A stretch of DNA of 64,000 bases from positions 17,814-81,813 of the forward strand of contig CAKPDM010000004.1 of NCBI GenBank assembly GCA_934148995.1, read 5' to 3'. Under the pieces are notes generated by a model that was not told the DNA's origin, did no database searches, and was given only the letters and a program-made list of their open reading frames with translations. The stretch comes from an uncultured Bacilli bacterium. GTDB lineage: Bacteria; Bacillota_I; Bacilli_A; RF39; UBA660. Position 1 is the first letter of the stretch. Each line of letters opens with the position of its first letter. Below are positions 4,799 to 61,490 of the stretch, in pieces. Made by a program: the position numbers and the translations under genes.

Positions 4799-7601
4799 AG
4801 TAGTGTTGGCAGTTACTGCTATTCTTCTTGTTTGTGTTATAGCAAATCCCTTAAGGACAAAAGCTGAAGACGGTGTTAACTGTCCAAGTAGAGAACAATT
4901 TTTGGAGGATAACTTTAGTGTTGTTAATACACTTAGTGATGGAACTAAAGTAGCATATACTCAAAATGGTAATACAATAACTTTATCTGAAAAGGCTGCG
5001 AATATGCCAGAAGTAAAGGTATATGTAAATGGTCGGTTAGTTACTACTGATGAACATGGTAACATAACAATTGACTTAACCGCAGAAGAAGCAGCTTCTG
5101 GTACCAGTACTACAACCTTAATTGTTTCTTTTTCAAGAGTAGTTAAGGAAGGAGAAAAACCATGTACTAATGAAATTAACTATAGTTTCAATACAATTAA
5201 AGAAGCTCCTGACGAACCAGATGATGATGAGACTAAAGAGATAGAAAGAGAACTTGGTACTTTGCCTAATGAATCATCACCCATTGATGATTTAGAAGAT
5301 GAAAGTTTTACTAAAGTCAGTGATCCTACAAAAAGCACTAGTTTAAGTTGTGAATATGGTAAAAATGATGGTAAAACAATTAAAAAGTATACGCACAAAG
5401 GTGTTGTTTCTGATACTGGTGATTGTAAAACTACTTGCCGTGAAGATGTAGTAGTAACATTAGATCCACCAGTTATTACCCAATCAGGAATGTGCTTTAG
5501 TTACGTTGCTGATATCAAAACAAAGACAGTTTGTTCTGCAAAATTTACTGGAGTAAAACCGACAAAAATAAAAGGTTGTATTGCTCCTACTAACTGTTCA
5601 AGTGGTACACATGAAGGTGGACCAAGTTCATCATTTGATACTTGTATAGATTCTTGTGATGGAGGAGAATATACTCAAAGTTGTATTAATAAGTGCTATA
5701 ATCAAGTTTATGGTAAATCAACTACAACAAAAAAAGTTAGCGCTACATCAAAAAAAGAATCAAGTGTTAAGTATCTTAATAGCTTGAAGGAAGATAATGC
5801 TATTCCTACACCAATGGCTAATAAATTAAAAACTGTTAAAGTCACCCCTGATAAGGAAGTAACTTGTTACACAGATGAATATTTTAAAAGTACAAGAAAT
5901 ATGAGTGCTGATGAGTTAAAGGCATTAGCTCAAAAAGTTTATGAATCTAAGAAATATTTACCTGGTGGTTATTATGGAACTGGTACAGAAAGTACTTGGA
6001 CTCAAAGCGCTGGCCATTTCTATTATAATACTAGTAAAGGAACATGGTCATGGAAAAAGAATGGTGGATGTTCAAGTGCGATAAACTATTATTATTTTAG
6101 TACAGTAGATGAAACATATAACACTATTAAAATGCTTAATGGCTCAATTAAGTCAACTTCACCTACTTATTCAGCACTAGGATATTATAGACAATATGAA
6201 TCATTTGACGGTTCTTTGAAAAGAGCAAGATATTTAAAATCTGATGGATCTATTGCTTTTGCAAGTGAATGCTCAGATACTTGTACTATTACTACTAACT
6301 GTTCTGAAAAAGTTAAAAACTATACTGATGATAAGAAGTACATTGTTACTAGTGCTCAAGGTAATATGATTTATAAGGCAGAACTTAAGGCATATAAGAA
6401 GGCCAAACAAGCATGCATTAAGACTGCTAATTCATGTAAAACAATAAATAGTAGTTATGTTATTAAAACAGATGAAACTAGTAAGAACACTGGTAATAAT
6501 TTGGGTCATGAGTATAATTCTTCTCAGAATATTAATCAAGCTTCTTCATCTTCAAATAAATCTACTAAATCTGGAAATTTCCCAAGTATGATCATCAATA
6601 CTAATGGATTATGTATAACTGGCGAATGTGAGAATGTAAATCAGGAATACTGTAGTAGTCTTAAACCAGAATCAGCTGAATATGAAGCATATTGTAAAGA
6701 TAAGCAATCTTGTAAGTCGGCTGGAATAGCTGCTTGTAAGAATGGAGATACTTGTTATGATTATCATACGACGATTTCATTCCCTAAAAATTATATCAAC
6801 GTTAAGACTGGTCAAACAAAAGTTGAAATATCTAAAGATAAATTACCTTATTATGTGGCAGTAGGGAATGCATATTGTACAAGTTTAACTACTAAAGATG
6901 TTAATATAAATTGGTATAATTATAAATTAGATGATACTAATACAGTTAGTAAACCTACAAAGATTAATAATTATAATATTACTGGTAAAATAAATAGTTA
7001 TGGTGTGTTTGGTTGGAATTTTGATTTCTCATGTTTCTTTGCAATTAAAAATCCATGTGTACAGGGTACTAAAAATTGTCCACCTGAAGAACCGGACAAT
7101 CCTGACACTCCTGATAATCCTGGCAATCCTGACAATCCTGACACTCCTGATAATCCATTAACTTCGAAAGTTAAAGTTCGTTCTGTAAATCTATCTAATC
7201 TATTCCCTAATAGAGCAGCAAGATTTAACTGGTCTGCAAATGCAACGAATAAAAATAATGTTAATTATAAAGTTGATCCAATAACACTTAGAAAAAATAT
7301 AGAAGCAACTGGAGATGCCGTTTATGACTCAGCTAATGAAAATAAATATTTAGATTATCATATTAAATTAACAAAATCAGCAATAACTACAATCAGAAAC
7401 TACAACAGTGGAAAAACTTATAATGATACAAGTGATGGAACAGGACTTAATAGACTATCTGGTCAAGGTACATGGGGGGTTACAGTTTATCGAAGTAAAC
7501 TTTTAGATCAACTAGGAACGTCAGTTATTACTAAACGTGGACTTATCGGATGTAACAACCAAACAAGTTCTACAACTTGTAATACAGAAGGAGGTAATTA
7601 G
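4785..7601 (+). CDS. Large secreted Cys-rich protein (about 938 aa) with a PDNP repeat; candidate adhesin or filament-associated protein
   Basis: Signal peptide MKKRRVVLAVTAILLVCVIANPLRTKA/EDG. Dozens of Cys residues are spread along the mature protein. PEEPDNPDTPDNPGNPDNPDTPDNP linker. No C-terminal sorting signal or TM helix. ATG 4785 was preferred over GTG 4776 because of RBS spacing. Confidence 0.6.
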   Translation: MKKRRVVLAVTAILLVCVIANPLRTKAEDGVNCPSREQFLEDNFSVVNTLSDGTKVAYTQNGNTITLSEKAANMPEVKVYVNGRLVTTDEHGNITIDLTAEEAASGTSTTTLIVSFSRVVKEGEKPCTNEINYSFNTIKEAPDEPDDDETKEIERELGTLPNESSPIDDLEDESFTKVSDPTKSTSLSCEYGKNDGKTIKKYTHKGVVSDTGDCKTTCREDVVVTLDPPVITQSGMCFSYVADIKTKTVCSAKFTGVKPTKIKGCIAPTNCSSGTHEGGPSSSFDTCIDSCDGGEYTQSCINKCYNQVYGKSTTTKKVSATSKKESSVKYLNSLKEDNAIPTPMANKLKTVKVTPDKEVTCYTDEYFKSTRNMSADELKALAQKVYESKKYLPGGYYGTGTESTWTQSAGHFYYNTSKGTWSWKKNGGCSSAINYYYFSTVDETYNTIKMLNGSIKSTSPTYSALGYYRQYESFDGSLKRARYLKSDGSIAFASECSDTCTITTNCSEKVKNYTDDKKYIVTSAQGNMIYKAELKAYKKAKQACIKTANSCKTINSSYVIKTDETSKNTGNNLGHEYNSSQNINQASSSSNKSTKSGNFPSMIINTNGLCITGECENVNQEYCSSLKPESAEYEAYCKDKQSCKSAGIAACKNGDTCYDYHTTISFPKNYINVKTGQTKVEISKDKLPYYVAVGNAYCTSLTTKDVNINWYNYKLDDTNTVSKPTKINNYNITGKINSYGVFGWNFDFSCFFAIKNPCVQGTKNCPPEEPDNPDTPDNPGNPDNPDTPDNPLTSKVKVRSVNLSNLFPNRAARFNWSANATNKNNVNYKVDPITLRKNIEATGDAVYDSANENKYLDYHIKLTKSAITTIRNYNSGKTYNDTSDGTGLNRLSGQGTWGVTVYRSKLLDQLGTSVITKRGLIGCNNQTSSTTCNTEGGN
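7095..7156 (+). repeat. In-frame direct repeat encoding the (DNPDTPDNPGNP) Pro/Asp/Asn linker
   Basis: GACAATCCTGACACTCCTGATAATCC occurs at 7095-7120 and again at 7131-7156, a 36-nt period. Confidence 0.8.
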
Positions 7602-35507: not shown

Positions 35508-36164
35508 ATGAATATTTTACTAGTAGAAGATGCAGAATCAATTATTAAAGGACTTACATATTCCTTGGAAAAAAGTAATTATAAACTAGTTATTAAAACT
35601 ACAATAAAAGATACTAAAGAATACTTACTTTCTAATACAAATATTGATTTAATCATTCTTGATATTACTTTACCTGATGGTAATGGTTTTGATTTATTTG
35701 TAAATACTATTAAAAACTTAAAGATACCGACTATTTTCTTAACAGCAAAAGATGAAGAAGATGATATTGTTAAAGGTCTAGATATAGGAGCAGAAGATTA
35801 TATAACTAAACCTTTTTCTACTAGGGAAGTAATAGCAAGAATTAATCGAATATTATTAAGATGTAAAAAGAAAAGTATTATTAAGATTAAAGATATTTCT
35901 TATGATATGGATAAATTAGTTTTAATGAAAAATAATACTCCTATAGAATTAACAGCATTAGAGTTAAAACTAGTTAATCTCTTATTTGTAAATATAAATA
36001 AAGTTGTAAGTAGAAATGTTATCTTAGATAAGATTTGGGATTGGACTGGTAATTATGTTGATGACCATACAGTAACCGTTTACTTTAAGAGAATAAGAGA
36101 AAAGATAGGAACTAATATAATTACTACTATTAAAGGAATGGGGTATAGAATAGATGAAGAATAA
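35508..36164 (+). CDS. OmpR-family response regulator
   Basis: MNILLVEDA, DLIILDITLPDG and TAKD receiver motifs. C-terminal winged helix (TIKGMGYRI). ATG 35508 with RBS GAAGGGAG was preferred to the track start at 35490. Confidence 0.85.
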   Translation: MNILLVEDAESIIKGLTYSLEKSNYKLVIKTTIKDTKEYLLSNTNIDLIILDITLPDGNGFDLFVNTIKNLKIPTIFLTAKDEEDDIVKGLDIGAEDYITKPFSTREVIARINRILLRCKKKSIIKIKDISYDMDKLVLMKNNTPIELTALELKLVNLLFVNINKVVSRNVILDKIWDWTGNYVDDHTVTVYFKRIREKIGTNIITTIKGMGYRIDEE

Positions 36165-37377
36165 ACTTAGATTAAAACAATATATTACTTCTACCTTAAT
36201 TGTTTTTATATGTTTGTTTGTTATGTTTCTAATTTTAAATATCTATGAATATAAAACTTATACTAAAAACTTTAATAATAAAATTAGTGCTATTATAACT
36301 TTGGTTAAAGATAAGTATCCAGAAATAACTGATAAAGAAATTATAGAAATAATAAATAGTAACAAACAATCAGATGATTCTTTTTTCCTTAAATATGGAA
36401 TTGATATAGATAATAAAGCAGTACTACTAGAAAATGATAAGAGTTATCATACATTTTTAATTATTAATATGTCTTTTCTAATAATAACTATTGCTAGTTT
36501 ATGTATATTATATTTTAGATACAATTATAAAAGAAAAAATGATATAAAAGATATTATTAAATGTATAGAACAAATTAATAGAAGGAATTATGAATTAAAG
36601 ATAGATACAATTTCAGAAGATGAATTATCAATTTTAAAAAATGAAATATATAAGACTGCTGTAATGTTAAAAGAAGCAGCTTTAAATTCTAATAAAGATA
36701 AACTTAATCTAAAGAAGTCATTAGAAGATATCTCTCATCAATTAAAAACACCTCTTACTAGTATATTAGTGCTATTAGATAATCTTATTGATGAACCAGA
36801 TATGGATTCTAGTATTAGAAATGATTTTATTATTGATATAAAAAGGAATGTTATAAATATTAATTTTTTAGTACAAGCACTTTTAAAATTGTCTAAGTTT
36901 GATGCTAATACTGTCCACTTTATAAAAAAAGAAAATGATTTAGAAATGATTGTTAAGGAAGCAATTAAGAATGTTTCTACTTTATGTGATTTAAGAAATA
37001 TAAATATAAAATTAAATACTTTAGAAAATGCTAAAGTAAAGTGTGATGCTAAATGGCAAATAGAAGCAATAACTAATATAATAAAAAATGCTATAGAACA
37101 CTCAAAAGATAATTCAAATATAGTAATAAATATAGATAACAATAGAGTTTATTCTAAGATTGAAGTGATTGATTTTGGTGATGGAATATCTAAAAGAGAT
37201 ATTAAGCATATTTTTGAAAGATTTTATAAGGGAGAAAATGCCACATCTAATAGTATAGGAATTGGTCTTGCTTTAGCAAAAACTATTATAGAAGAAGATA
37301 AGGGAACTATAGCAGTAGAATCAAATGAATCTAATACTAAGTTTACTATTAAATACTTTAAACTTACATTTGAGTAA
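36154..37377 (+). CDS. Sensor histidine kinase
   Basis: Two TM helices. H-box ISHQLKTPLTSI. N-box NIIKNAIEHS. G-boxes DFGDGI and GIGLALAK. Confidence 0.85.
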   Translation: MKNKLRLKQYITSTLIVFICLFVMFLILNIYEYKTYTKNFNNKISAIITLVKDKYPEITDKEIIEIINSNKQSDDSFFLKYGIDIDNKAVLLENDKSYHTFLIINMSFLIITIASLCILYFRYNYKRKNDIKDIIKCIEQINRRNYELKIDTISEDELSILKNEIYKTAVMLKEAALNSNKDKLNLKKSLEDISHQLKTPLTSILVLLDNLIDEPDMDSSIRNDFIIDIKRNVININFLVQALLKLSKFDANTVHFIKKENDLEMIVKEAIKNVSTLCDLRNINIKLNTLENAKVKCDAKWQIEAITNIIKNAIEHSKDNSNIVINIDNNRVYSKIEVIDFGDGISKRDIKHIFERFYKGENATSNSIGIGLALAKTIIEEDKGTIAVESNESNTKFTIKYFKLTFE

Positions 37378-37383
37378 GTGAAT

Positions 37384-37849
37384 TAAAAAAAAATTCAGTT
37401 GATGAAGAAATACATAATACTGGTTGTTGGAAAAAGTATGAAAATAAACTAAGAAATATTGATTTAAAGTTAGCTTATCCAGATGAAGTTGATAATCTTA
37501 TGTTTAATTTACTAATGGACTGGAATGAACTTATAAATCCAACAATAGAAGATATAGCAAAGTTTCATTATCGTTTTGAATTAATTCATCCTTTTCAAGA
37601 TGATAATGGTAGAATAGGAAGATTTATAATACTAAAACAGTGTATTGAAAGTGATATTGATTTGATTGCAATTGATAATGGGTATGAAAAAAATATAAAG
37701 AAGCTTTATATAAAGCTCAAAAAATAGATGATGTTTCTTTTCTAGTTGATGTATTTAGTAAATGTCAAAAAAGATTAGATGAAAAAATGATAGACTATAA
37801 AAATACTATTGATTTAGTTAAGAGAGAAATTGAAAGTGAAGACAGATGA
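37384..37849 (+). pseudogene. Decayed Fic/DOC-family gene (frameshifted, N-terminally truncated)
   Basis: The central 75-aa ORF carries HPFQDDNGRIGRF, where the Fic motif HPFxxGNGR has Gly replaced by Asp. Fic-like sequence continues in other frames on both sides (…LAYPDEVDNL upstream; …KAQKIDDVSFLVDVFSKCQ…ESEDR* downstream). No RBS or start for a full-length protein. Confidence 0.55.
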
Positions 37850-37939
37850 TGACTAATGTCTTTTTTCGTATATAATGCTAAATTAATTTTAATTTTAGTC
37901 TTTCTTTGCTATAATATAGTAGAAATGTGGTGATTAAAC

Positions 37940-52109: not shown

Positions 52110-52790
52110 ATGAAAGTTAAAGAAATACCATCTAATGAAAGACCAAGAGAAAGGTTAGAAAATTATGGACCTAGTAATTTATCAACCTCTGATTTATTAG
52201 CAATTATCTTATCTAGTGGACTTAAAGGAAAGAATGTTACAGAGCTTTCTTTTGAATTATTATCTAAAGTTGATAGTGTTAAAGATTTAGCTAATCTAGA
52301 ATTAAAAGAATTATGTAAAGTAAAAGGAATAGGTAAAGCGAAGGCTACTACTTTATTAGCAGCGATAGAATTAGGAAAGAGAATTTATTTGTTACCTGAT
52401 GCTAAAAAAGTAAAATTAATTACAGCTGAAGACATCTTTTCTTATAGTAAGTATTTATTTTATGGAAAGAAACAGGAATGTTTTTATTGTCTATATGTAG
52501 ATAAATTAAGAAATTTAATTACAGCTAAACTTCTTTTCATGGGAACAATGGATAGAAGTAGCGTTCATCCAAGAGAAATATTTAAAGAAGCTTATAAAGT
52601 ATCAGCTACAGGAATAATCTGTATTCATAATCATCCATCAGGTGTATTGTTACCAAGTCCTAAAGATATTGAATTTACTAATGACTTAATAAGTCTTGGT
52701 AATTTTCATGGTATATATATACTTGATCATTTAATCGTTAATGAGCATAAATATTACAGTTTTGTAGAAAATAGAAATAAGAATAATTGA
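52110..52790 (+). CDS. radC: RadC-family JAB-domain protein
   Basis: N-terminal HhH (PRERL...LSTSDLLAIIL) and the JAMM motif HNHPSG. Confidence 0.85.
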   Translation: MKVKEIPSNERPRERLENYGPSNLSTSDLLAIILSSGLKGKNVTELSFELLSKVDSVKDLANLELKELCKVKGIGKAKATTLLAAIELGKRIYLLPDAKKVKLITAEDIFSYSKYLFYGKKQECFYCLYVDKLRNLITAKLLFMGTMDRSSVHPREIFKEAYKVSATGIICIHNHPSGVLLPSPKDIEFTNDLISLGNFHGIYILDHLIVNEHKYYSFVENRNKNN

Positions 52791-52841
52791 AAAAAAAATA
52801 GGTTTCAGATATACTAGATAAGGAAAGAAAGGGAGCAAAAG

Positions 52842-53636
52842 ATGTATCAAAAGAAAAAGAAAAGAAAAAAAATTATTATTATATTTGCTGCTATTTTTAT
52901 TTCATTTTTCCTTCTATTTTATTCTTTAACTTCTAATAGAAAAGTAGGTGCAATTGAAGGTGTATTAAAAGATGGAGCAACAATTATTTCTAAAATTGTA
53001 ATGACACCATTTACCACTTTGAATAAGGAAAAAGATAAAGATGCTAGTAAAAGTTATTTAATTCAAAAAAATATAAATGTTCATTTAGAAGAGGAAATAG
53101 AACAATTAAGAGATACTCTTAGTTTAAATCAAACTTTAACTGGTTATAATATTGTAAATGCTACTGTAATAAATAGGAATAGAAGCTATTGGTATCAAAC
53201 TTTAACTATTGATAAAGGTAAGAGTTCTGGTTTAAAAGAAAATATGATTGTTATAACTAAGAATGGTTTAATTGGTAAATTAGAAAAAGTTACTAAGTAT
53301 TCTGCTACAGTTAAATTAATAACTGCTAATGATGTTAATAATAAAGTATCTGTTTCTATTACTACTTCTAGTGGAGAAACTAATGCTATTTTAAGTGGTT
53401 ATGATAAGAAAAAAAATGAAATATTAGTTAGTGGTGTTGATAGTAGTATTGATATTAATAAAGGTGATGCCGTAACAACTAGTGGTTTAGGGGGAGTATT
53501 TCCACGAGGTATTTATATTGGTAAAGTAGAAAGTGTCTCTTTAGATAAATATGGTTTAAGTAAAACTTTAGCCATAAAAACTGACCAAAATTTTAATAGT
53601 ATTCACTATGTTACTATTCTAAAAGGAGAAAAATAA
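52842..53636 (+). CDS. mreC: Rod shape-determining protein MreC
   Basis: N-terminal TM helix and coiled coil. GLIGKLEKV, GGVFPRGIYIGKV. Followed by mreD. Confidence 0.85.
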   Translation: MYQKKKKRKKIIIIFAAIFISFFLLFYSLTSNRKVGAIEGVLKDGATIISKIVMTPFTTLNKEKDKDASKSYLIQKNINVHLEEEIEQLRDTLSLNQTLTGYNIVNATVINRNRSYWYQTLTIDKGKSSGLKENMIVITKNGLIGKLEKVTKYSATVKLITANDVNNKVSVSITTSSGETNAILSGYDKKKNEILVSGVDSSIDINKGDAVTTSGLGGVFPRGIYIGKVESVSLDKYGLSKTLAIKTDQNFNSIHYVTILKGEK

Positions 53637-53638
53637 CT

Positions 53639-54139
53639 ATGCTTTTTGTTTATATAACTGTCATTATTTCTTTTCTTTTAGATGGCGTTTTATCTAATTT
53701 TTTAAATTATATGTTGGGTGATATATCTATCTTTAATCCTTTATTAACTATTGTAGCAATAATAATGATTTATCCATATTTTAAGAAAGATGAAAATAAG
53801 TACTTTATTACTTCCTTTATTTTAGGACTTTTATATGATTTATTTTATACTAATTTATTATTTACAGATGCTATTTTGTTTTTACTACTAGCATTAATTT
53901 ATAGCTATTTATATAAAAAGTTAGAAGTAAATGTTCTAACGACAGCTTTTTCTATTTGTTTAATAATTAGCATTTATGAAATTATTTTAGCATTCTTATT
54001 ATTCATCTTTGATATTGTGCCAGTGACACTTTCAGAAGTTTCATATTTAATAGTTAATAGTTTGCTATTAAATGTCATCTATGGAGAAATATTATATCTA
54101 ATATCAAGAATAACAAAACGCAAAAGACGTCTAAATTAG
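53639..54139 (+). CDS. mreD: Rod shape-determining protein MreD
   Basis: 166-aa polytopic membrane protein directly after mreC. Confidence 0.7.
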   Translation: MLFVYITVIISFLLDGVLSNFLNYMLGDISIFNPLLTIVAIIMIYPYFKKDENKYFITSFILGLLYDLFYTNLLFTDAILFLLLALIYSYLYKKLEVNVLTTAFSICLIISIYEIILAFLLFIFDIVPVTLSEVSYLIVNSLLLNVIYGEILYLISRITKRKRRLN

Positions 54140-54178
54140 TCTTTTCTTTTTTTGATTTTTTTTCATATTATTTACTAG

Positions 54179-54778
54179 GTGATGATAATGGTTGAATCAA
54201 AGTTTTATAAAAATAGTAATAATAAGAAAAGTAAGAGTAATTTTTTTAAAAATATTCTTTCTAGAATTTTAATAACAGTTATAGTAACACTTCTATTATT
54301 AATTTGTTTTAAAATGAATAATAATTTTAAGAAAAGTTTTTATCATTATACTTATGAACAGAACTTTCCTTTTTCAGTCGTTAAAAACTTTTTACAAGAA
54401 AAATTTGGAACTAGCTTAACTTTTGATAAGATAGTGACAGATCAAGAAGTTTTTAATGAAAAGTTATCTTATAAAGATAAGAGTTTATATCATGATGGGG
54501 TAAAGTTAACAGTCAGTAGTGAATATATGGTACCATCTTTTGAAAGTGGAATAGTTGTATATATAGGTGAAAAAGAAAATTATAAACAAACTGTTATTGT
54601 GCAGCAGATGAATGGTGTAGATGTTTGGTATGGAAATATTAAGCAAGCGAATGTTAAGCTTTATGATTATGTTGAAAAGGGTGCATTGATTGGTCAAGTT
54701 AGTGATAAGACTTTGTATTTAGTATTTCAAAAAGAAGGGAAGTTTATAGATTATCAAAGCTATCTTTCAAAAAGTTAA
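54179..54778 (+). CDS. spoIVFA: SpoIVFA-like membrane protein with a degenerate M23/LytM domain
   Basis: TM helix plus a LytM-like C-terminus (GIVVYIGEKENYKQTVIVQQMNGVDVWYGNIKQANVKLYDYVEKGALIGQV) without the HxxxD/HxH metal ligands. Lies immediately upstream of spoIVFB, as in Bacillus. Confidence 0.55.
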   Translation: MMIMVESKFYKNSNNKKSKSNFFKNILSRILITVIVTLLLLICFKMNNNFKKSFYHYTYEQNFPFSVVKNFLQEKFGTSLTFDKIVTDQEVFNEKLSYKDKSLYHDGVKLTVSSEYMVPSFESGIVVYIGEKENYKQTVIVQQMNGVDVWYGNIKQANVKLYDYVEKGALIGQVSDKTLYLVFQKEGKFIDYQSYLSKS

Positions 54779-54818
54779 ATTTCATAAGTCTTGTTTACTA
54801 TTTCTATTTCTAGCAGTT

Positions 54819-55505
54819 TTGACGGGGCAATTTTATTTAATTTTTCTTTCTTTTTTATTATTATTTACACATGAATGTGGACATTTCTTTACAGCTTGTC
54901 TTTTTAAATGGAAAACTAAGGAGATAACGTTTTATCCTTTTGGTGGTATTGCTCGTTTTGCTTCAATGATTAACTGTCCCATTTTAGAAGAGTTACTAGT
55001 GTTAGTAATGGGACCTTTGGTTCAATGTGTTTTTTACTATTTTTTTAAAGATTTATTAATGACTCCATATCAAACAAAATTATTTACTACTATTCATTAT
55101 AATATTTTAGTATTTAATCTTTTACCAATTTATCCTTTAGATGGTGGTAGAATTATTGAAGTACTTTTGTGTTATTTTATGTCTTATCAAGATAGTTATA
55201 AAGTTACATTTTTAATTTCTTATTTATCACTTCTTTTAATTTTTATTTTCTTTTTAGTTTATCCGAGTACTTATTTTTTACTAATGTTTATTTTAATTTT
55301 ATTAAGACTTATTAAAGAAAAGAAATATTTAAAGTATTATTATGAACGTTTTCTACTAGAAAGGTATTTGAAAAAATTAGTTTATAAAAAAAGAAAAATA
55401 GTAAGAAGTGAAAAGAAGTTTCGAAGAGAATATTCGCATATTATTAAAAATGGCGATTGGTATCAGAGTGAGGAAGAGTATTTAAAAGATAAATATGTAA
55501 CTTAA
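54819..55505 (+). CDS. spoIVFB: Site-2 (M50) intramembrane metalloprotease SpoIVFB
   Basis: HECGHF (HExxH) in TM1. NLLPIYPLDGGR (NPDG-type motif). Synteny with mreCD and the spoIVFA-like gene. TTG start is uncertain. Confidence 0.75.
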   Translation: MTGQFYLIFLSFLLLFTHECGHFFTACLFKWKTKEITFYPFGGIARFASMINCPILEELLVLVMGPLVQCVFYYFFKDLLMTPYQTKLFTTIHYNILVFNLLPIYPLDGGRIIEVLLCYFMSYQDSYKVTFLISYLSLLLIFIFFLVYPSTYFLLMFILILLRLIKEKKYLKYYYERFLLERYLKKLVYKKRKIVRSEKKFRREYSHIIKNGDWYQSEEEYLKDKYVT

Positions 55506-55664
55506 ATACTAAAAAAATTCATACTTTTCTCGTACTATTATTTCATCTTGTTCTATTGTTATCTATCTATCTATATATTTGTTACTATTATTTCGGATAC
55601 ATTTGAAATATCAGGTGCTTTCCCTTCTATAAAATTTAAATTAAATAGAAGGGTGGTGATATTT

Positions 55665-55733
55665 ATGACAAAAAACCAAACATTTGTCGTAATATTACTT
55701 TTATTTTTGGTAATATTTATTATTATTTTATAA
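55665..55733 (+). CDS. 22-aa hydrophobic peptide (type I toxin-like), cassette A
   Basis: RBS GAAGGGTGGTGA lies 6 nt upstream of the ATG. Translation MTKNQTFVVILLLFLVIFIIIL. Conserved in cassette B with only conservative changes. Confidence 0.5.
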   Translation: MTKNQTFVVILLLFLVIFIIIL

Positions 55734-55821
55734 AAATAGCACCTGATTTCAACTTTTGTTGAATTCGGGTGCTAACCACAAAAAATTGGGAAGCATCTGA
55801 TTACCACAATCAAATGTATCC
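55731..55821 (-). ncRNA. Candidate convergent antisense sRNA of cassette A (~90 nt)
   Basis: On the minus strand there is a perfect -10 TATAAT (+ coordinates 55833-55828). On the minus strand the hairpin at 55773-55738 is followed by ATTTTTAT, an intrinsic terminator ending at the peptide stop codon. Confidence 0.25.
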
Positions 55822-56063
55822 TTTTTTATTATATGAAGTTTCCTTCATTTAGATACATCTTATCACAGAAATAATTTAATAACAATGTATCATTTATAAA
55901 AAAATTGTGTAGAGAAAAAGTTTATACTTTTCTCGTATTATTATTTCACCTTGTTCTATTGTCATCTATTCATATATCTGTTACTATTAGTTCGGATACA
56001 TTTGAAATATCAGGTGCTTTCCCTTCTATAAAATTTAAATTAAATAGAAGGGTGGTGATATCT

Positions 56064-56132
56064 ATGACAAAAAACCAAACTTTTGTTGTAATATTACTTT
56101 TATTTTTGATAATATTTATTATATTATTATAA
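56064..56132 (+). CDS. 22-aa hydrophobic peptide (type I toxin-like), cassette B
   Basis: Same RBS. Translation MTKNQTFVVILLLFLIIFIILL. Confidence 0.5.
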   Translation: MTKNQTFVVILLLFLIIFIILL

Positions 56133-56217
56133 AATAGCACCTGATTTCAACTTTTGTTGAACTCGGGTGCTTGTCCCAAACTTGGAGAGCATCTGATTAC
56201 CACAATCAAATGTATCC
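56128..56217 (-). ncRNA. Candidate convergent antisense sRNA of cassette B
   Basis: Same elements as cassette A: ATTATA on the + strand at 56224-56229, and the hairpin at 56136-56171 followed by a T-run on the minus strand. Confidence 0.25.
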
Positions 56218-56376
56218 TTTTTTATTATATGAAGTTTCCTTCATCTAGATACATCTTATCACAGAAATTATTTAATAACAATGTATCATTTCTAAAAATA
56301 CTAATATAAGAAAAAAATTTACTTTTCTCGTATTATTTTAAAATGTAGTTTTTAATTTCCAAGTGCAAAATATAAG

Positions 56377-56405
56377 TTTCAAAGTGCAATTTTTGCACTT
56401 TGAAA
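56377..56405. other. Perfect 12-bp stem hairpin in the degenerate third cassette
   Basis: TTTCAAAGTGCA-atttt-TGCACTTTGAAA, T-rich on both sides. AAGTGCAA-like words recur nearby. Confidence 0.6.
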
Positions 56406-56732
56406 TTATTTATACTATAAATTAAATAGAAAAGTGCGAAAATCTTCACACTTCTCTAGTAATATTTATAATACTATTCAAATAAAAAAAGACACCTAAT
56501 CCAACTTTTGTTGAATTTGAGTGACAAACCAAATCTTGGAAAAACACCTGATTATGGTCTATCAAATTTAGATCTCTTTAGCAAAGTTTTCTTTGCTAAA
56601 TACATATTACAACAAAGAATAAGAAATAACAATATCCTTTTCTAAAAAACACTATTCAAAGATAAAATTCACATATTTCTCGTATTATTATAGAGTTTTT
56701 ATTATCTAATTAAAGCATTCTAAAAAAAATAA

Positions 56733-56741
56733 TGCTATAAT
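56733..56741 (+). promoter_or_regulatory. Extended -10 element upstream of the BceR-like regulator gene
   Basis: TGcTATAAT lies 18 nt upstream of ATG 56760. Confidence 0.4.
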
Positions 56742-56759
56742 TATGGCGGTGAAGAAAAA

Positions 56760-57425
56760 ATGAATAAAAAAATACTAATAGTAGAAGACGATATCGGTAT
56801 GCAGGAGGAATTAAAAGCTTTATTAGAAAACACTTCCTATGAAGTATCGGTATTAAAAGACTTTGCAAATGCTAAAGAAATAATTTTAAATTCCAATGTT
56901 GATTTAGTATTATTAGATGTGAATATTCCTTATCTAAATGGAGAATTACTATTAAAAGAACTAAGAAAAGAAAGTAATATACCCGTTATAATTCTTACTA
57001 GTCGTGCTAGTGAATTAGATGAAGCTTTATCAATTTCTTATGGTGCTGATGATTTTATTACCAAACCTTATAATCCAACTATATTATTACTTCGTATTCA
57101 AAACGTCTTTAAACGCTTAAACCAAATAAAAGATAAAATTAAATATCGTGACTTAATAGTTTATCAAAATAAAGGAACATTAGTAAAAAATCAAGAGACG
57201 ATAGAACTTACTAAAAATGAAATGATAATATTTTTATATCTTTTAACCAATCAAAATAGAATAGTAAGTCGTGATGAGTTGATGAGTGAATTATGGAATA
57301 ACGAAGAATATATAAATGATAATGCTTTAACGGTAAACATCAGCAGATTAAGAAGTAAATTAGCAAGCTTTGGTTATAGTGAAGCGATTGAAACTAGAAA
57401 AGGACAAGGGTATATCTTATTATGA
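56760..57425 (+). CDS. OmpR-family response regulator (BceR-like)
   Basis: KILIVEDD, DLVLLDVNIPYLNG and TSRA receiver motifs. Winged helix ETRKGQGYIL. Sits in an RS-AB four-gene module. Confidence 0.85.
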   Translation: MNKKILIVEDDIGMQEELKALLENTSYEVSVLKDFANAKEIILNSNVDLVLLDVNIPYLNGELLLKELRKESNIPVIILTSRASELDEALSISYGADDFITKPYNPTILLLRIQNVFKRLNQIKDKIKYRDLIVYQNKGTLVKNQETIELTKNEMIIFLYLLTNQNRIVSRDELMSELWNNEEYINDNALTVNISRLRSKLASFGYSEAIETRKGQGYILL

Positions 57426-58453
57426 GACTTAAAAACTATTTAAAAGATAAAATACTTTCTATAATTATCTATTTTTTAGCTACAATATTAATAATTAGTA
57501 TCTTATTAGCATTTAAAATGTCTATCTACTTAGTATTAATAATTTCTACTATTCTTTTAGTAACTGGTATTAGTATTCTTCTCTTAGAGTATTTTCGAAA
57601 GAGAAACTTTTATCAAAACTTAATAACTAATCTTGAAGCTTTAGATAAAAAATACTTAGTTTTAGAAACTGTAACTACTCCTAATTTTTATGAAGGAAAA
57701 CTACTAAGTAAAATATTATATGATATAGATAAATCTATGATTGAAGAAATTAATAGATATAAAGCAAACTTAGAAGACTTTAAAGACTATATCGAAATGT
57801 GGATTCATGAAGTGAAAATGCCTCTAGCTACTCTTATTCTAATGACTCATAATAATAAAGACTTAGATAGAAAATACCTTTATCAATTAAAAAGATTAGA
57901 TAACTATCTAGACCAAGTATTATATTATGTACGTAGTAACTATTTAGAAGAAGACTTTACCTTTCAAGATGTTAGTTTAGATAAGGTAATTACAGCGATA
58001 GCTTTAAAAAATAAAGATGATTTATTAGAAAATAATATAGATTTTATCGTTGATACAAAAGGAATGAAAGTTACTACTGATTATAAATGGTTGGAATTTA
58101 TCTTGAATCAAATAATCAATAATAGTATTAAATATGCTAGTAAAACTAAAAATAGCTATATCAAAATAACAGCACATCAGTTAGATGATAAAGTTAGACT
58201 TAGTATTTTAGATAATGGTAAAGGAATTAGTAAAAGTGATTTACCCAAGGTCTTTAATAAGTCATTTACTGGTGATAATGGAATTTATAATACAAAATCA
58301 ACTGGAATGGGGTTATATATTGCTAAGAAATTATGTGATAAACTAGGTCATAAAATAGAAATTACCTCTTTAGCAAGTGAATATACCTTAGTAACTTTAA
58401 CCTTTGGTGTAAATAACTATTATAAAATACAAACTAATATTACAAAATTGTAA
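57422..58453 (+). CDS. Intramembrane-sensing histidine kinase (BceS-like)
   Basis: Two closely spaced TM helices with almost no extracellular loop. H-box WIHEVKMPLATL. N-box QIINNSIKYA. G-boxes DNGKGI and GMGLYIAKK. Confidence 0.8.
   Translation: MRLKNYLKDKILSIIIYFLATILIISILLAFKMSIYLVLIISTILLVTGISILLLEYFRKRNFYQNLITNLEALDKKYLVLETVTTPNFYEGKLLSKILYDIDKSMIEEINRYKANLEDFKDYIEMWIHEVKMPLATLILMTHNNKDLDRKYLYQLKRLDNYLDQVLYYVRSNYLEEDFTFQDVSLDKVITAIALKNKDDLLENNIDFIVDTKGMKVTTDYKWLEFILNQIINNSIKYASKTKNSYIKITAHQLDDKVRLSILDNGKGISKSDLPKVFNKSFTGDNGIYNTKSTGMGLYIAKKLCDKLGHKIEITSLASEYTLVTLTFGVNNYYKIQTNITKL
58438..58453 (+). promoter_or_regulatory. Inverted repeat ATTACAA-N2-TTGTAAT upstream of the BceA-like gene (candidate BceR-type box)
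   Basis: attacaaaattgtaat overlaps the kinase stop codon. A third TGTAAT half-site follows 4 nt later. About 70 nt upstream of ATG 58523. Confidence 0.4.
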
Positions 58454-58522
58454 TGAACTGTAATATTAAACAAACGACAAAGTAATTACTCTTCATCTAA
58501 AATGGTAACAGAGGTGAGAAAA

Positions 58523-59290
58523 ATGAATGATTTATTAAGAATCGATAATATTGAAAAGTATTATGGAACAAAATCAAGTTTAACAAAAGCTCTTGATGGT
58601 TTATCATTTTCAGTAGCAAAAAAAGAATTTGTTGCTATTATGGGAGCGAGTGGAAGTGGAAAGACAACGTTATTAAACTGTATTTCTACTATTGATAAAG
58701 TAACTTCTGGGCATATCTTTTTAGGAGATACCGATATTACTAAATTAAAAGGTGAAGATTTAAATAGTTTTAGAAGAGAAGAGTTAGGTTTTATCTTTCA
58801 AGACTTTAATCTTCTTGATACTTTGACGGGGTATGAAAATATTGCTTTAGCATTATCTATTCAAAATGTTCCTTTCTTAAGTATTGATAGTAGAATTAAG
58901 AAAGTAGCAAAAGAATTAGATATTACTAATATCTTAAATAAATACCCTTATGAGATGAGTGGTGGTCAAAAGCAAAGAATAGCAGCAGCTAGAGCAATAA
59001 TTACTAATCCTAAACTAGTTTTAGCAGATGAACCGACTGGTGCTCTTGACTCTAAAGCTAGTAAAATGTTACTAGAAAAGTTTAATTATTTAAATAATGA
59101 ATTAGATGCTACGATACTAATGGTTACACATGATGCTTTTACAGCTAGTTATGCTAAAAGAGTAATTTTTATTAAAGATGGTAAAATATTTAATGAATTG
59201 CATAAAGGTGATTTATCACGAAAAGAATTCTTTGATAAGATAATCAATGTTGTTACTGTCTTAGGAGGAGACTTGAACGATGCTTTGTAA
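58523..59290 (+). CDS. ABC transporter ATP-binding protein (BceA-like)
   Basis: Walker A GASGSGKTT, signature MSGGQKQR, Walker B VLADEPTG. ATG 58523 with RBS GAGGTGAG. Confidence 0.85.
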   Translation: MNDLLRIDNIEKYYGTKSSLTKALDGLSFSVAKKEFVAIMGASGSGKTTLLNCISTIDKVTSGHIFLGDTDITKLKGEDLNSFRREELGFIFQDFNLLDTLTGYENIALALSIQNVPFLSIDSRIKKVAKELDITNILNKYPYEMSGGQKQRIAAARAIITNPKLVLADEPTGALDSKASKMLLEKFNYLNNELDATILMVTHDAFTASYAKRVIFIKDGKIFNELHKGDLSRKEFFDKIINVVTVLGGDLNDAL

Positions 59291-61340: not shown

Positions 61341-61369
61341 AGTCCTATCTATATCAAGTAGATAGGATT
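61341..61369. terminator. Bidirectional rho-independent terminator
   Basis: AGTCCTATCTA-tatcaag-TAGATAGGATT (11 bp, one G-U pair), with an A8 run before it and a T-rich run after it. Confidence 0.65.
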
Positions 61370-61427
61370 ATTTGATTTTAACTTTTTGATTAAGCATCAT
61401 ACTATTATCATATTCTTTACCAAGTAT

Positions 61428-61490
61428 TAAACTACTGATAAAGAAAAGAACTAAACCTAAAATGAAAATTAGTAAAAGTAATTCTAACAT
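61428..61490 (-). CDS. Candidate 20-aa hydrophobic peptide
   Basis: The minus strand reads GACAGGAGGTTTAAATG, then MLELLLLIFILGLVLFLSVV*. Strong SD with short 5-nt spacing. A terminator lies ~60 nt downstream. No convincing promoter found. Confidence 0.3.

Follow-up and report, generated by a model that had tools for sequence, protein, structure and literature searches.

The 64-kb window analyzed here, 64,000 nucleotides (nt) from an uncultured Bacilli bacterium, holds at positions 55506-56759 a tandem array of small units, which we propose to read as type I toxin-antitoxin-like modules. With 1254 nt, this is the largest stretch of the window without an open reading frame (ORF) of at least 90 amino acids (aa), the runner-up measuring 562 nt, and an earlier reading made without database searches (hereafter the sequence-only reading) had rightly singled it out as the largest non-coding stretch. 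On its 5' side lies the gene for a 228-aa M50 (SpoIVFB-like) site-2 protease and on its 3' side a bceR-bceS-bceA-bceB-like operon. Repeat analysis and alignment resolve the gap into three units, which we call cas1 (55505-55907), cas2 (55908-56302) and cas3 (56303-56654), and a fourth copy of a boundary motif before bceR. Both intact units, cas1 and cas2, are ~92% identical, as expected from the two near-identical cassettes described earlier. The diverged cas3, described as a decayed third, has lost its peptide ORF and is alignable with the others in its 3' part only (about 65-70% identity); it is decayed only in part, as it keeps the whole 3' (antisense) half. An intact unit combines an extended -10 promoter, a ~232-nt fold-back mRNA, a hairpin opposing the Shine-Dalgarno sequence (anti-SD hairpin), a 22-codon hydrophobic ORF and an antisense gene on the opposite strand.

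The peptide ORFs lie on the plus strand exactly where they had been reported, that of cas1 (MTKNQTFVVILLLFLVIFIIIL, 22 aa) at 55665-55733 and that of cas2 (MTKNQTFVVILLLFLIIFIILL) at 56064-56132, and the strong ribosome-binding site noted before them is equally present (GAAGGGTGGTGA at 55648-55659, with a second copy in cas2). About 40 related units were found in about 30 genome and metagenome contigs (designated by L numbers below), and their intact ORFs encode 12 distinct peptide sequences of 22-27 aa that fall into four types: type A (MTKNQTFVVILLLFLVIFIIIL and close variants), type B (MTKNQTFVVVLLLFIVIFTLLFK), type C (MAKRELFLYVIIFLLLIENFILLFK, MTKREFFLYVIIFLLIIENLIFLFH, MTKREHFLCLVILILFIEVFILLFK, MTKREISLYIIIVLQFIVVFILLFK and MSERKSFLYVIIFLLIIKNLIFLFN) and type D (MTKKQ[ST]FVVILLLFIIIFTLLYR). 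The peptides differ in sequence, yet their chemistry is conserved throughout, with a polar/basic N-terminus (MTK+), 16-19 consecutive hydrophobic residues and often a terminal aromatic-plus-basic pair. By inspection, they also pass the rule of Fozo et al. that at least 10 of 15 residues be I, V, L, F, C, M or A. A length of 22 aa would suffice for a toxin, since IbsC, with 19 aa, is still toxic when reduced to 15 aa (PMC8309996).

Nei-Gojobori counts give a ratio of non-synonymous to synonymous differences (pN/pS) of 0.34 for the A/B/D types and 0.45 for the C types, values that are indicative rather than exact because they come from pairwise, phylogenetically non-independent counts. Differences at codon positions 1/2/3 number 155/84/294 (A/B/D) and 162/54/158 (C), so that the second position, which fixes hydrophobicity, is the least variable. 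Length differences between intact ORFs amount to whole codons, and the B-type ORFs of L069 and L007 are separated by 3 synonymous and 0 non-synonymous changes. On these comparisons the ORF is a real coding sequence under purifying selection, and the equal rates of synonymous and non-synonymous change that the sequence-only reading had named as an argument against its own proposal are not what we observe. The same data bear on the view that the unit is a structured non-coding RNA or repeat element whose short ORF is incidental and untranslated. This would account for the very strong predicted structure, for stems outside the ORF that are more conserved in sequence than the ORF itself, and for the many copies from which the ORF is missing. 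It is nevertheless highly improbable in view of the low pN/pS and the conserved second codon position, the in-frame length changes, the peptide chemistry maintained over 12 sequences, and the near-consensus Shine-Dalgarno sequence (SD) that stands 7-8 nt before the ATG in every intact unit.

Upstream of each ORF, a toxin promoter is predicted on the plus strand, in cas1 at 55556-55588 (TTGTTA, 21-nt spacer, TGT-TACTAT) and in cas2 at 55959-55987 (TTGTCA, 17-nt spacer, TGT-TACTAT), the latter with canonical spacing. Across the units this promoter is conserved as TTGNNA, 17 nt and TGT-TACTAT, followed by 6 nt to GGATAC. The exception is cas1 of the window, where an additional CTAT repeat makes the spacer 4 nt over-long (21 versus 17 nt, the latter also being found in L006 of the same species), and its toxin promoter is therefore probably weak. 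With ends placed by the positions of promoter and U-tract, the predicted toxin mRNAs run on the plus strand from 55595 to 55828 in cas1 (~232 nt) and from 55994 to 56224 in cas2. The corresponding segments 55590-55830 and 55989-56226 have minimum free energies of -85.5 and -84.9 kcal/mol, compared with about -37 +/- 4.6 for dinucleotide shuffles (z = -10.4 and -10.3), a stability that is not due to chance.

In the predicted fold, a bipartite closing helix joins the first 27 nt of the mRNA to the last 30 nt before the U-tract; 5' GGAUACAUUUGA pairs with 3' UCAAAUGUAUCC and AUCAGGUGCUUU with GGGAAGCAUCUGAU, and U6 follows directly. Within it, the anti-SD hairpin (CCCUUCUAU/AUAGAAGGG, 55622-55653, plus strand) masks the 5' half of the SD GAAGGGUGGUGA (55648-55659), its pairing CCCUUCU:AGAAGGG covering half of a very strong SD. 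Folding of 55590-55830, close to the 55540-55830 that the sequence-only reading had recommended for this, recovers the fold-back that it had described, in which the leader GGATACATTTGA...TCAGGTGCT (55595-55619) is complementary both to the segment after the stop codon and to 55792-55821 with T6 next to it; the local hairpin that it had placed at 55738-55773 is present in the minimum-energy fold. The 5' arm of this post-stop hairpin is also complementary to the mRNA leader, which can alternatively fold by itself into a small 5' hairpin (CAUUUGA/UCAGGUG), and alternative or co-transcriptional folds of the toxin mRNA are therefore possible. An RNAalifold consensus over 21 distinct homologues retains the closing helices as well as the anti-SD and post-stop hairpins; the ORF-internal hairpins of the predicted fold are not conserved among peptide types. 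A second alignment, with 17 distinct sequences, has 94.8% of its cells paired, as against 34-43% when the partners are slid.

The sequence-only reading had offered no antitoxin. On the minus strand, each intact unit now shows a predicted convergent promoter, 5' hairpin and terminator. In cas1, the promoter at 55857-55885 (minus strand; TTGTTA at 55885-55880, 17-nt spacer, TGA-TAAGAT at 55862-55857) would give rise to an antisense RNA of ~120 nt (55728-55850, minus strand; z -7.4), for which a duplex energy of -170 kcal/mol is predicted. In cas2, promoter and predicted antisense RNA together span 56127-56281 on the minus strand, with the -35 element at 56281-56276, the -10 element at 56258-56253, a start at ~56246 and a terminator hairpin at 56136-56171. 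The promoter lies downstream of each U-tract and has the form TTG(T/C)TA, 17 nt, TGn-TAAnAT. It occurs in 15 distinct sequence versions, and conservation, measured in the 14 that have a 17-nt spacer, reaches 0.93-1.0 in the -35 hexamer, 1.0 and 0.93 in the TG at -15/-14, and 1.0 at positions T1, A2 and T6 of the -10 element, compared with 0.36-0.71 at spacer positions 2-9. In this alignment, the combination of a conserved TG and hexamers with a freely varying first half of the spacer is the footprint expected of a working sigma-A promoter.

The predicted antisense RNA shows full complementarity to the 3'-terminal ~95 nt of the toxin mRNA, a stretch that contains the 3' strand of the closing helix. 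It consists of a 5' GNRA hairpin, a central hairpin and a terminator, the last being the post-stop hairpin (55738-55773) read backwards and followed by AUUUUU on the minus strand. In its 126-nt version from the window, it folds into three stem-loops (z = -7.4), and in the alignment a minus-strand T-run follows the post-stop hairpin in those units that keep this hairpin. The 5' hairpin is found at the same place in at least five different sequences (ATGAAG/CTTCAT, GCAAAG/CTTTGC, CAGATGAG/CTCATCTG and others), of which four versions fold at -6 to -10.8 kcal/mol and one mismatched version, from the 'u0' remnants introduced below, at -3.2; these variants were folded singly, a MAFFT alignment of the hairpin not being in structural register. 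The central hairpin depends on a G-U pair whose plus-strand counterpart would be a C-A mismatch; this hints at selection of the hairpin on the minus-strand RNA.

The two halves have decayed asymmetrically in the retrieved copies. The toxin half has been lost in many independent ways: by deletion of the start codon and -35 element (L003/L056), by an internal ORF deletion (L010u1), by +/-1 frameshifts in the A6-A8 run right after the ATG (L012, L057), by a +1 frameshift in an A-run further along the ORF (L071u2), by a change of ATG to ATA (L040b), and by a deletion from leader to hairpin arm (L031u2). The 'u0' remnants of L010, L040, L042, L047, L051 and L053, directly behind the M50 gene, have retained the 3' half only. 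The antisense promoter is kept in 38 of the 39 distinct 3' regions retrieved, the exception being L034, a fragment at a contig end, and no complete intact toxin ORF is without an antisense promoter among the units retrieved. As judged from these sequences, loss of the toxin with retention of the antitoxin is the pattern that toxin-antitoxin logic predicts. Chromosomal hok copies, which are often inactivated by mutation, offer a parallel to the decay of the toxin half seen here (PMC8309996). As a side observation, simple repeats on the toxin half appear prone to slippage, with the CTAT gain in the cas1 promoter (55562-55582) and the A-run frameshifts in L012, L057 and the second unit of L071; this could reflect on/off switching or merely frequent inactivation.

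The third unit of the window fits the same asymmetry. A toxin-less derivative of a B-type cassette, of which an intact counterpart is found in L007, cas3 lacks the SD, the start codon and the N-terminal codons and keeps the 3' half. In place of its 5' part stands a long near-perfect hairpin (56353-56408) with 18-nt arms of 94% complementarity; it resembles a terminator in scans of either strand and is ~99% conserved in L006, L061 and L063. The orphan antisense RNA predicted for cas3 occupies, with its promoter, 56480-56632 on the minus strand (TTGTTA at 56632-56627, 17-nt spacer, TAATAT at 56609-56604) and begins with the hairpin AGCAAAG/CUUUGCU. Its predicted duplexes with the cas1 and cas2 mRNAs reach -77 and -74 kcal/mol, respectively, compared with about -35 +/- 4 for shuffles.

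The related units come from several searches and occur in two unrelated genomic contexts. Scanning a genome collection with a hairpin pattern gave true matches in three metagenome-assembled genomes (MAGs) only (L003, L006, L007), at the same locus behind the M50 gene; homologues of the M50 protein (99%, 81%, then <=58% identity) led to the syntenic contigs L010-L014 with ~74%-identical units; a metagenome scan with the 3' closing-strand pattern added 20 further true loci; and homologues of a P-type ATPase gave three more (L069, L070, L071). Chance matches, dropped after blastn, made up 4 of 7 in the genome scan and 20 of 40 in the metagenome scan. An nhmmer profile of the unit found none in the loci of a 55%-identity clade of M50 proteins and, when run against 575 kb of collected sequence, no extra copies elsewhere in the window. 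A cassette had no blastn match (distant mode) in collections of plasmids and phages, and two pattern matches on viral contigs were rejected as chance, having no further similarity. The hosts are uncultured low-GC (25-28%) gut Bacilli, all of them MAGs, whose nearest named relative by the ATPase is Candidatus Onthousia (68% identity in this one protein).

In the first context, the unit directly follows the M50 stop codon and precedes bceRSAB or, in L011-L014, which lack the bce module, a gene of 39 aa and wzz. In the second, it directly follows the stop codon of a gene for an 872-aa PMCA-type ATPase (L062, L069 and L071 among others) and precedes a tRNA or ABC-F gene; the nearest cassette-free relative of this ATPase (L072, 71% identity), considered as an empty site that might point to an att-like origin of the motif, lacks the motif and differs in its genes. 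Arrays of one to three units are found in the window, L006, L007, L010, L040, L051, L031, L071 and L069. Behind the ATPase gene of L069, an intact B-type unit (5694-5930) with a peptide identical to that of L007 cas2 stands before a second, diverged unit whose ORF is truncated to 18 codons (6139-6273). Since the decayed B-type cas3 of the window lies behind M50, B-type units are, by sequence, present at both chromosomal sites.

Gene neighborhoods also allow other roles for the peptide to be weighed. Precursors of short hydrophobic signaling peptides of the SHP/Rgg or PrgQ/iCF10 type are 21-23 aa long, basic at the N-terminus and hydrophobic in the tail, and an M50 protease processes them. The peptides described here recall them in size and charge pattern, and in one context an M50 site-2 protease gene lies immediately upstream. 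However, flank annotation with Pfam and the ORF list reveal no Rgg/RRNPP regulator adjacent to the units in either context, the sole HTH_3 gene being ~4.5 kb off in L010, and the M50 gene is absent from the ATPase context. Where it is present, it is the last gene of a radC-mreC-mreD-M23-M50 cluster (52110-55505) whose order we take to resemble the mre-spoIVFA-spoIVFB region of Bacillus subtilis, so that its place next to the cassettes would reflect conserved synteny and not functional partnership. As an mRNA that blocks its own translation and an ORF that is recurrently inactivated would also ill suit a signaling gene, we regard a signaling precursor as very unlikely.

Small hydrophobic peptides that regulate P-type ATPases are known, and in both contexts the gene immediately before the units, for the M50 protease or the PMCA-type ATPase, encodes a polytopic membrane protein. 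The peptide, whose ORF is under purifying selection, might thus be a small membrane protein with an ordinary, non-toxic role, for example as a modulator of the ATPase or of the site-2 protease, tuned by a cis-antisense RNA and a structured leader. Such a role would leave unexplained why one family stands behind two unrelated genes with its own promoter and terminator in each unit, why it is amplified in tandem and frequently turns into pseudogenes that retain the antisense half, and why the single loci recovered in L003/L056 and L012 have no intact copy, as a housekeeping function would not be expected to be lost so often. We consider it the foremost alternative to a toxin, although an unlikely one.

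Every unit is preceded by a boundary motif of ~28 nt with the core ACTTTTCTCGTAYTAT, which occurs four times in the window (55523, 55926, 56321 and 56673) and nowhere else in it, where 0.07 copies would be expected by chance. The first copy (55505-55552, plus strand; core ACTTTTCTCGTACTAT at 55523-55538) directly follows the M50 stop codon, the second lies at 55908-55955 (plus strand; core 55926-55942), the third has its core at 56321-56337, and the fourth (56655-56702, plus strand; core 56673-56689) is located ~46 nt upstream of the extended -10 element of bceR (TGCTATAAT, 56733-56741). Across both genomic contexts, the core TTTTCTCGTA stands before every unit and, in most arrays, also after the last one; the consensus aAAAtTyryAyTTTTCTCGTAsTAt is a direct repeat, with further sites in L062 (5436 and ~5806) and L010 (5941/6578/6915/7235). 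Outside unit boundaries, the motif was not found in the 575 kb of collected sequence. Plus-strand -10 elements follow it at a distance of ~41-51 nt; they belong to the toxin genes, to bceR and to a GNAT acetyltransferase gene that stands behind a boundary motif within the cassette array of L010 (5930-6541). The promoter of this GNAT gene is homologous to the toxin promoter (TTGCTA, 17 nt, TACCAT), and its leader and SD are cassette-like minus the anti-SD part, so the gene may represent a promoter capture. In L019, an IS200/IS605 element (Y1 transposase and TnpB/OrfB; 1150-2900) is inserted immediately 3' of the boundary motif behind M50, and a glycosyltransferase gene takes the place of the cassette and the downstream genes.

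By eye, and against consensus sequences, the motif fits no box for an extracytoplasmic function (ECF) sigma factor, a sporulation sigma factor, CodY, CcpA, Spo0A or BceR, and it was rejected as the toxin promoter, a canonical extended -10 promoter being located ~45 nt downstream. A regulator site and a recombination boundary are both conceivable. Because it fronts units after stop codons at two unrelated sites as well as the GNAT gene and the bceR promoter, the units could be discrete motif-delimited cassettes, either recombination- or insertion-competent expression cassettes or members, with their neighbors, of one regulon wired by a shared regulator site. We hold this idea to be quite doubtful; if true, it would give type I modules a novel route for spreading and for gene capture.

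The position directly upstream of bceR, with the boundary motif so close to the bceR -10 element, might also suggest a cis-regulatory leader, attenuator or other accessory of the downstream BceRS-AB module, and the sequence-only reading had raised a possible link to envelope-stress sensing. Synteny contradicts this, as cassettes occur without bce genes (L011-L014) or behind the P-type ATPase gene and before a tRNA or ABC-F gene (L062, L069, L071). Moreover, each unit is closed by a terminator-like structure of its own, and the GNAT gene of L010 shows that another gene can intervene between units and bceR. The chance that the array serves the Bce module is close to negligible. We note in passing that the window contains a second Bce-like module at 32206-37939, whose ABC ATPase, response regulator and kinase are 46%, 33% and 27% identical to those encoded at 56760-59290, and that the second-largest ORF-free gap (37378-37939) comes after it. 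Between bceB (or the cassette) and wzz lies a conserved ORF of 39-40 aa (MLELLLLIFILGLVLFFISSLILGKEYDNSMMLNQKVKIK; window 61368-61490, minus strand; L011 6164-6283, minus strand) with an N-terminal hydrophobic helix, a charged tail and its own terminator hairpin; it matched no Pfam family and could be another small membrane protein or toxin-like gene.

Taken together, the anatomy of the units and their patterns of conservation are best explained by a new family in uncultured gut Bacilli that belongs to a known kind of system, and we put at roughly 70% the probability that the units are type I toxin-antitoxin-like modules whose two transcripts converge and overlap at their 3' ends. This upholds the proposal of the sequence-only reading, a multicopy type I toxin-antitoxin-like family with a small membrane peptide on a fold-back mRNA, which now draws on the fold stability (z about -10), pN/pS, the predicted antisense gene and the loss of the toxin half. 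In the mechanism that we infer, the extended -10 promoter would start a ~232-nt toxin mRNA at the G of GGAUAC, and the 5'-3' helix and the anti-SD hairpin would keep this mRNA translationally closed. From the minus strand, a second extended -10 promoter would produce the ~120-nt antisense RNA. By analogy with bsrG/SR4 and txpA/RatA, the resulting duplex would be degraded by RNase III, or the mRNA locked in a non-translatable state, or both. In cells in which the antisense RNA is absent, the peptide would be made, enter the membrane and arrest growth.

Several points weigh against this reading. No similarity to any known toxin or antitoxin family was detected in Pfam, NCBIfam or Rfam: an Rfam search of both strands gave no antitoxin family at E up to 10 in 54500-57500 and nothing at gathering score in the whole window, and hmmscan of the four peptide types against Pfam and NCBIfam gave no toxin family at E up to 10. 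The only Rfam matches were microRNA-like ones on hairpins, which were discarded as chance. For scale, Rfam holds 13 type I antitoxin families (PMC8594479). Many type I toxins typically end in a charged tail, which A-type peptides do not have, and the frequent loss of the ORF is also compatible with a dispensable non-toxic gene. Intrinsic terminators do not usually have a long-range helix as the stem ahead of the U-tract, as the units do, and the mRNA 3' end is therefore uncertain. Lastly, the covariation analysis recommended by the sequence-only reading gave modest formal covariation: 32 of 49 pairs are invariant, 5 of 49 change both partners, a number reached by 19 of 500 shuffles, and the covariation score of 0.065 versus 0.056 was reached by 11 of 500. 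The clearest compensations, from C-G to U-A, affect two anti-SD pairs (29-58 and 33-54; L010u2, L040b) and one pair of the post-stop hairpin. That the 3' closing strand is invariant is partly a matter of ascertainment, as this strand was in the metagenome search pattern. Support for the modeled structure therefore comes mainly from thermodynamics and from conserved stems versus variable loops and linkers, and the covariation statistics add little.

To our knowledge, no type I systems have been described in this group of low-GC uncultured gut Bacilli, from which, if confirmed, a new type I toxin-antitoxin family would thus emerge; its 22-25-aa toxins would be among the shortest in Gram-positive bacteria. 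Natural variants of the units (intact, altered in spacing, frameshifted in an A-run, ORF-less, or reduced to an orphan antisense gene) would provide material for the study of mRNA silencing, of divergence in antitoxin specificity and of toxin decay. Such loci escape standard annotation, as illustrated by the zero genes called in the 1.25-kb gap.

Searches for type I systems have used criteria that include a small (<60-70 aa) hydrophobic peptide with a potential transmembrane stretch and tandem duplication in one intergenic region (PMC2887945), and type I toxin mRNAs, 150-400 nt in length, hide the SD in an anti-SD stem-loop, in a 5'-3' long-distance interaction or in both (PMC8594479). The units display these traits, namely a small hydrophobic peptide, a short mRNA with predicted SD sequestration and 5'-3' interaction, and tandem intergenic copies. 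They resemble ibs/Sib, ldr/Rdl and zorO/OrzO of E. coli in that several near-identical units with very short hydrophobic toxins share one intergenic region, IbsC having 19 aa and ShoB 26 aa (PMC8309996, PMC2887945). These systems belong to another phylum with no homology detected, and they differ in layout, as Sib spans the ibs ORF from end to end, and OrzO is divergent without overlap. With hok/Sok and aapA1/IsoA1, the units have in common, in their predicted fold, a full-length mRNA locked by pairing of its 5' and 3' ends and alternative leader pairings (PMC8309996). Both of these are Gram-negative systems without sequence homology to the units, in which the antisense RNA lies at the 5' side or over the ORF, and hok in addition requires the overlapping mok frame.

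Nearer in host, the par locus (Fst/RNAII) of the Enterococcus faecalis plasmid pAD1 has, as predicted for the units, convergent RNAs with a bidirectional terminator in a Firmicute host, and in Fst/RNAII, as in SprA1, the antisense RNA does not overlap the ORF. Fst differs in pairing through 5' direct repeats outside the overlap and in its 33 aa with a charged tail, and searches with the units matched neither Fst nor Ldr in Pfam, nor RNAII in Rfam, and turned up no plasmid homologue. The layout comes closest to the Gram-positive systems with 3' overlap (PMC8594479), as the predicted antisense gene is convergent, located on the 3' side and in partial overlap with the mRNA. Compared with bsrG/SR4-type systems, the units show no peptide (Pfam, NCBIfam) or RNA (Rfam) similarity, their peptides are shorter (22-27 aa versus 29-59 aa), their predicted antisense RNA ends at the toxin stop codon where the others overlap the ORF, their predicted mRNA is closed by a 5'-3' long-distance helix, and they lie outside prophages. 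In their predicted organization they share with bsrG/SR4, bsrE/SR5, txpA/RatA and yonT/SR6 of Bacillus subtilis and with sprG/SprF of S. aureus the convergent RNAs that overlap at their 3' ends (PMC8594479), and with the bsrG/SR4 type an antisense RNA of ~100-200 nt with stem-loops and a toxin mRNA in which the SD is partly sequestered (PMC8594479, PMC8309996); bsrG/SR4 and txpA/RatA are the closest mechanistic models (PMC8309996).

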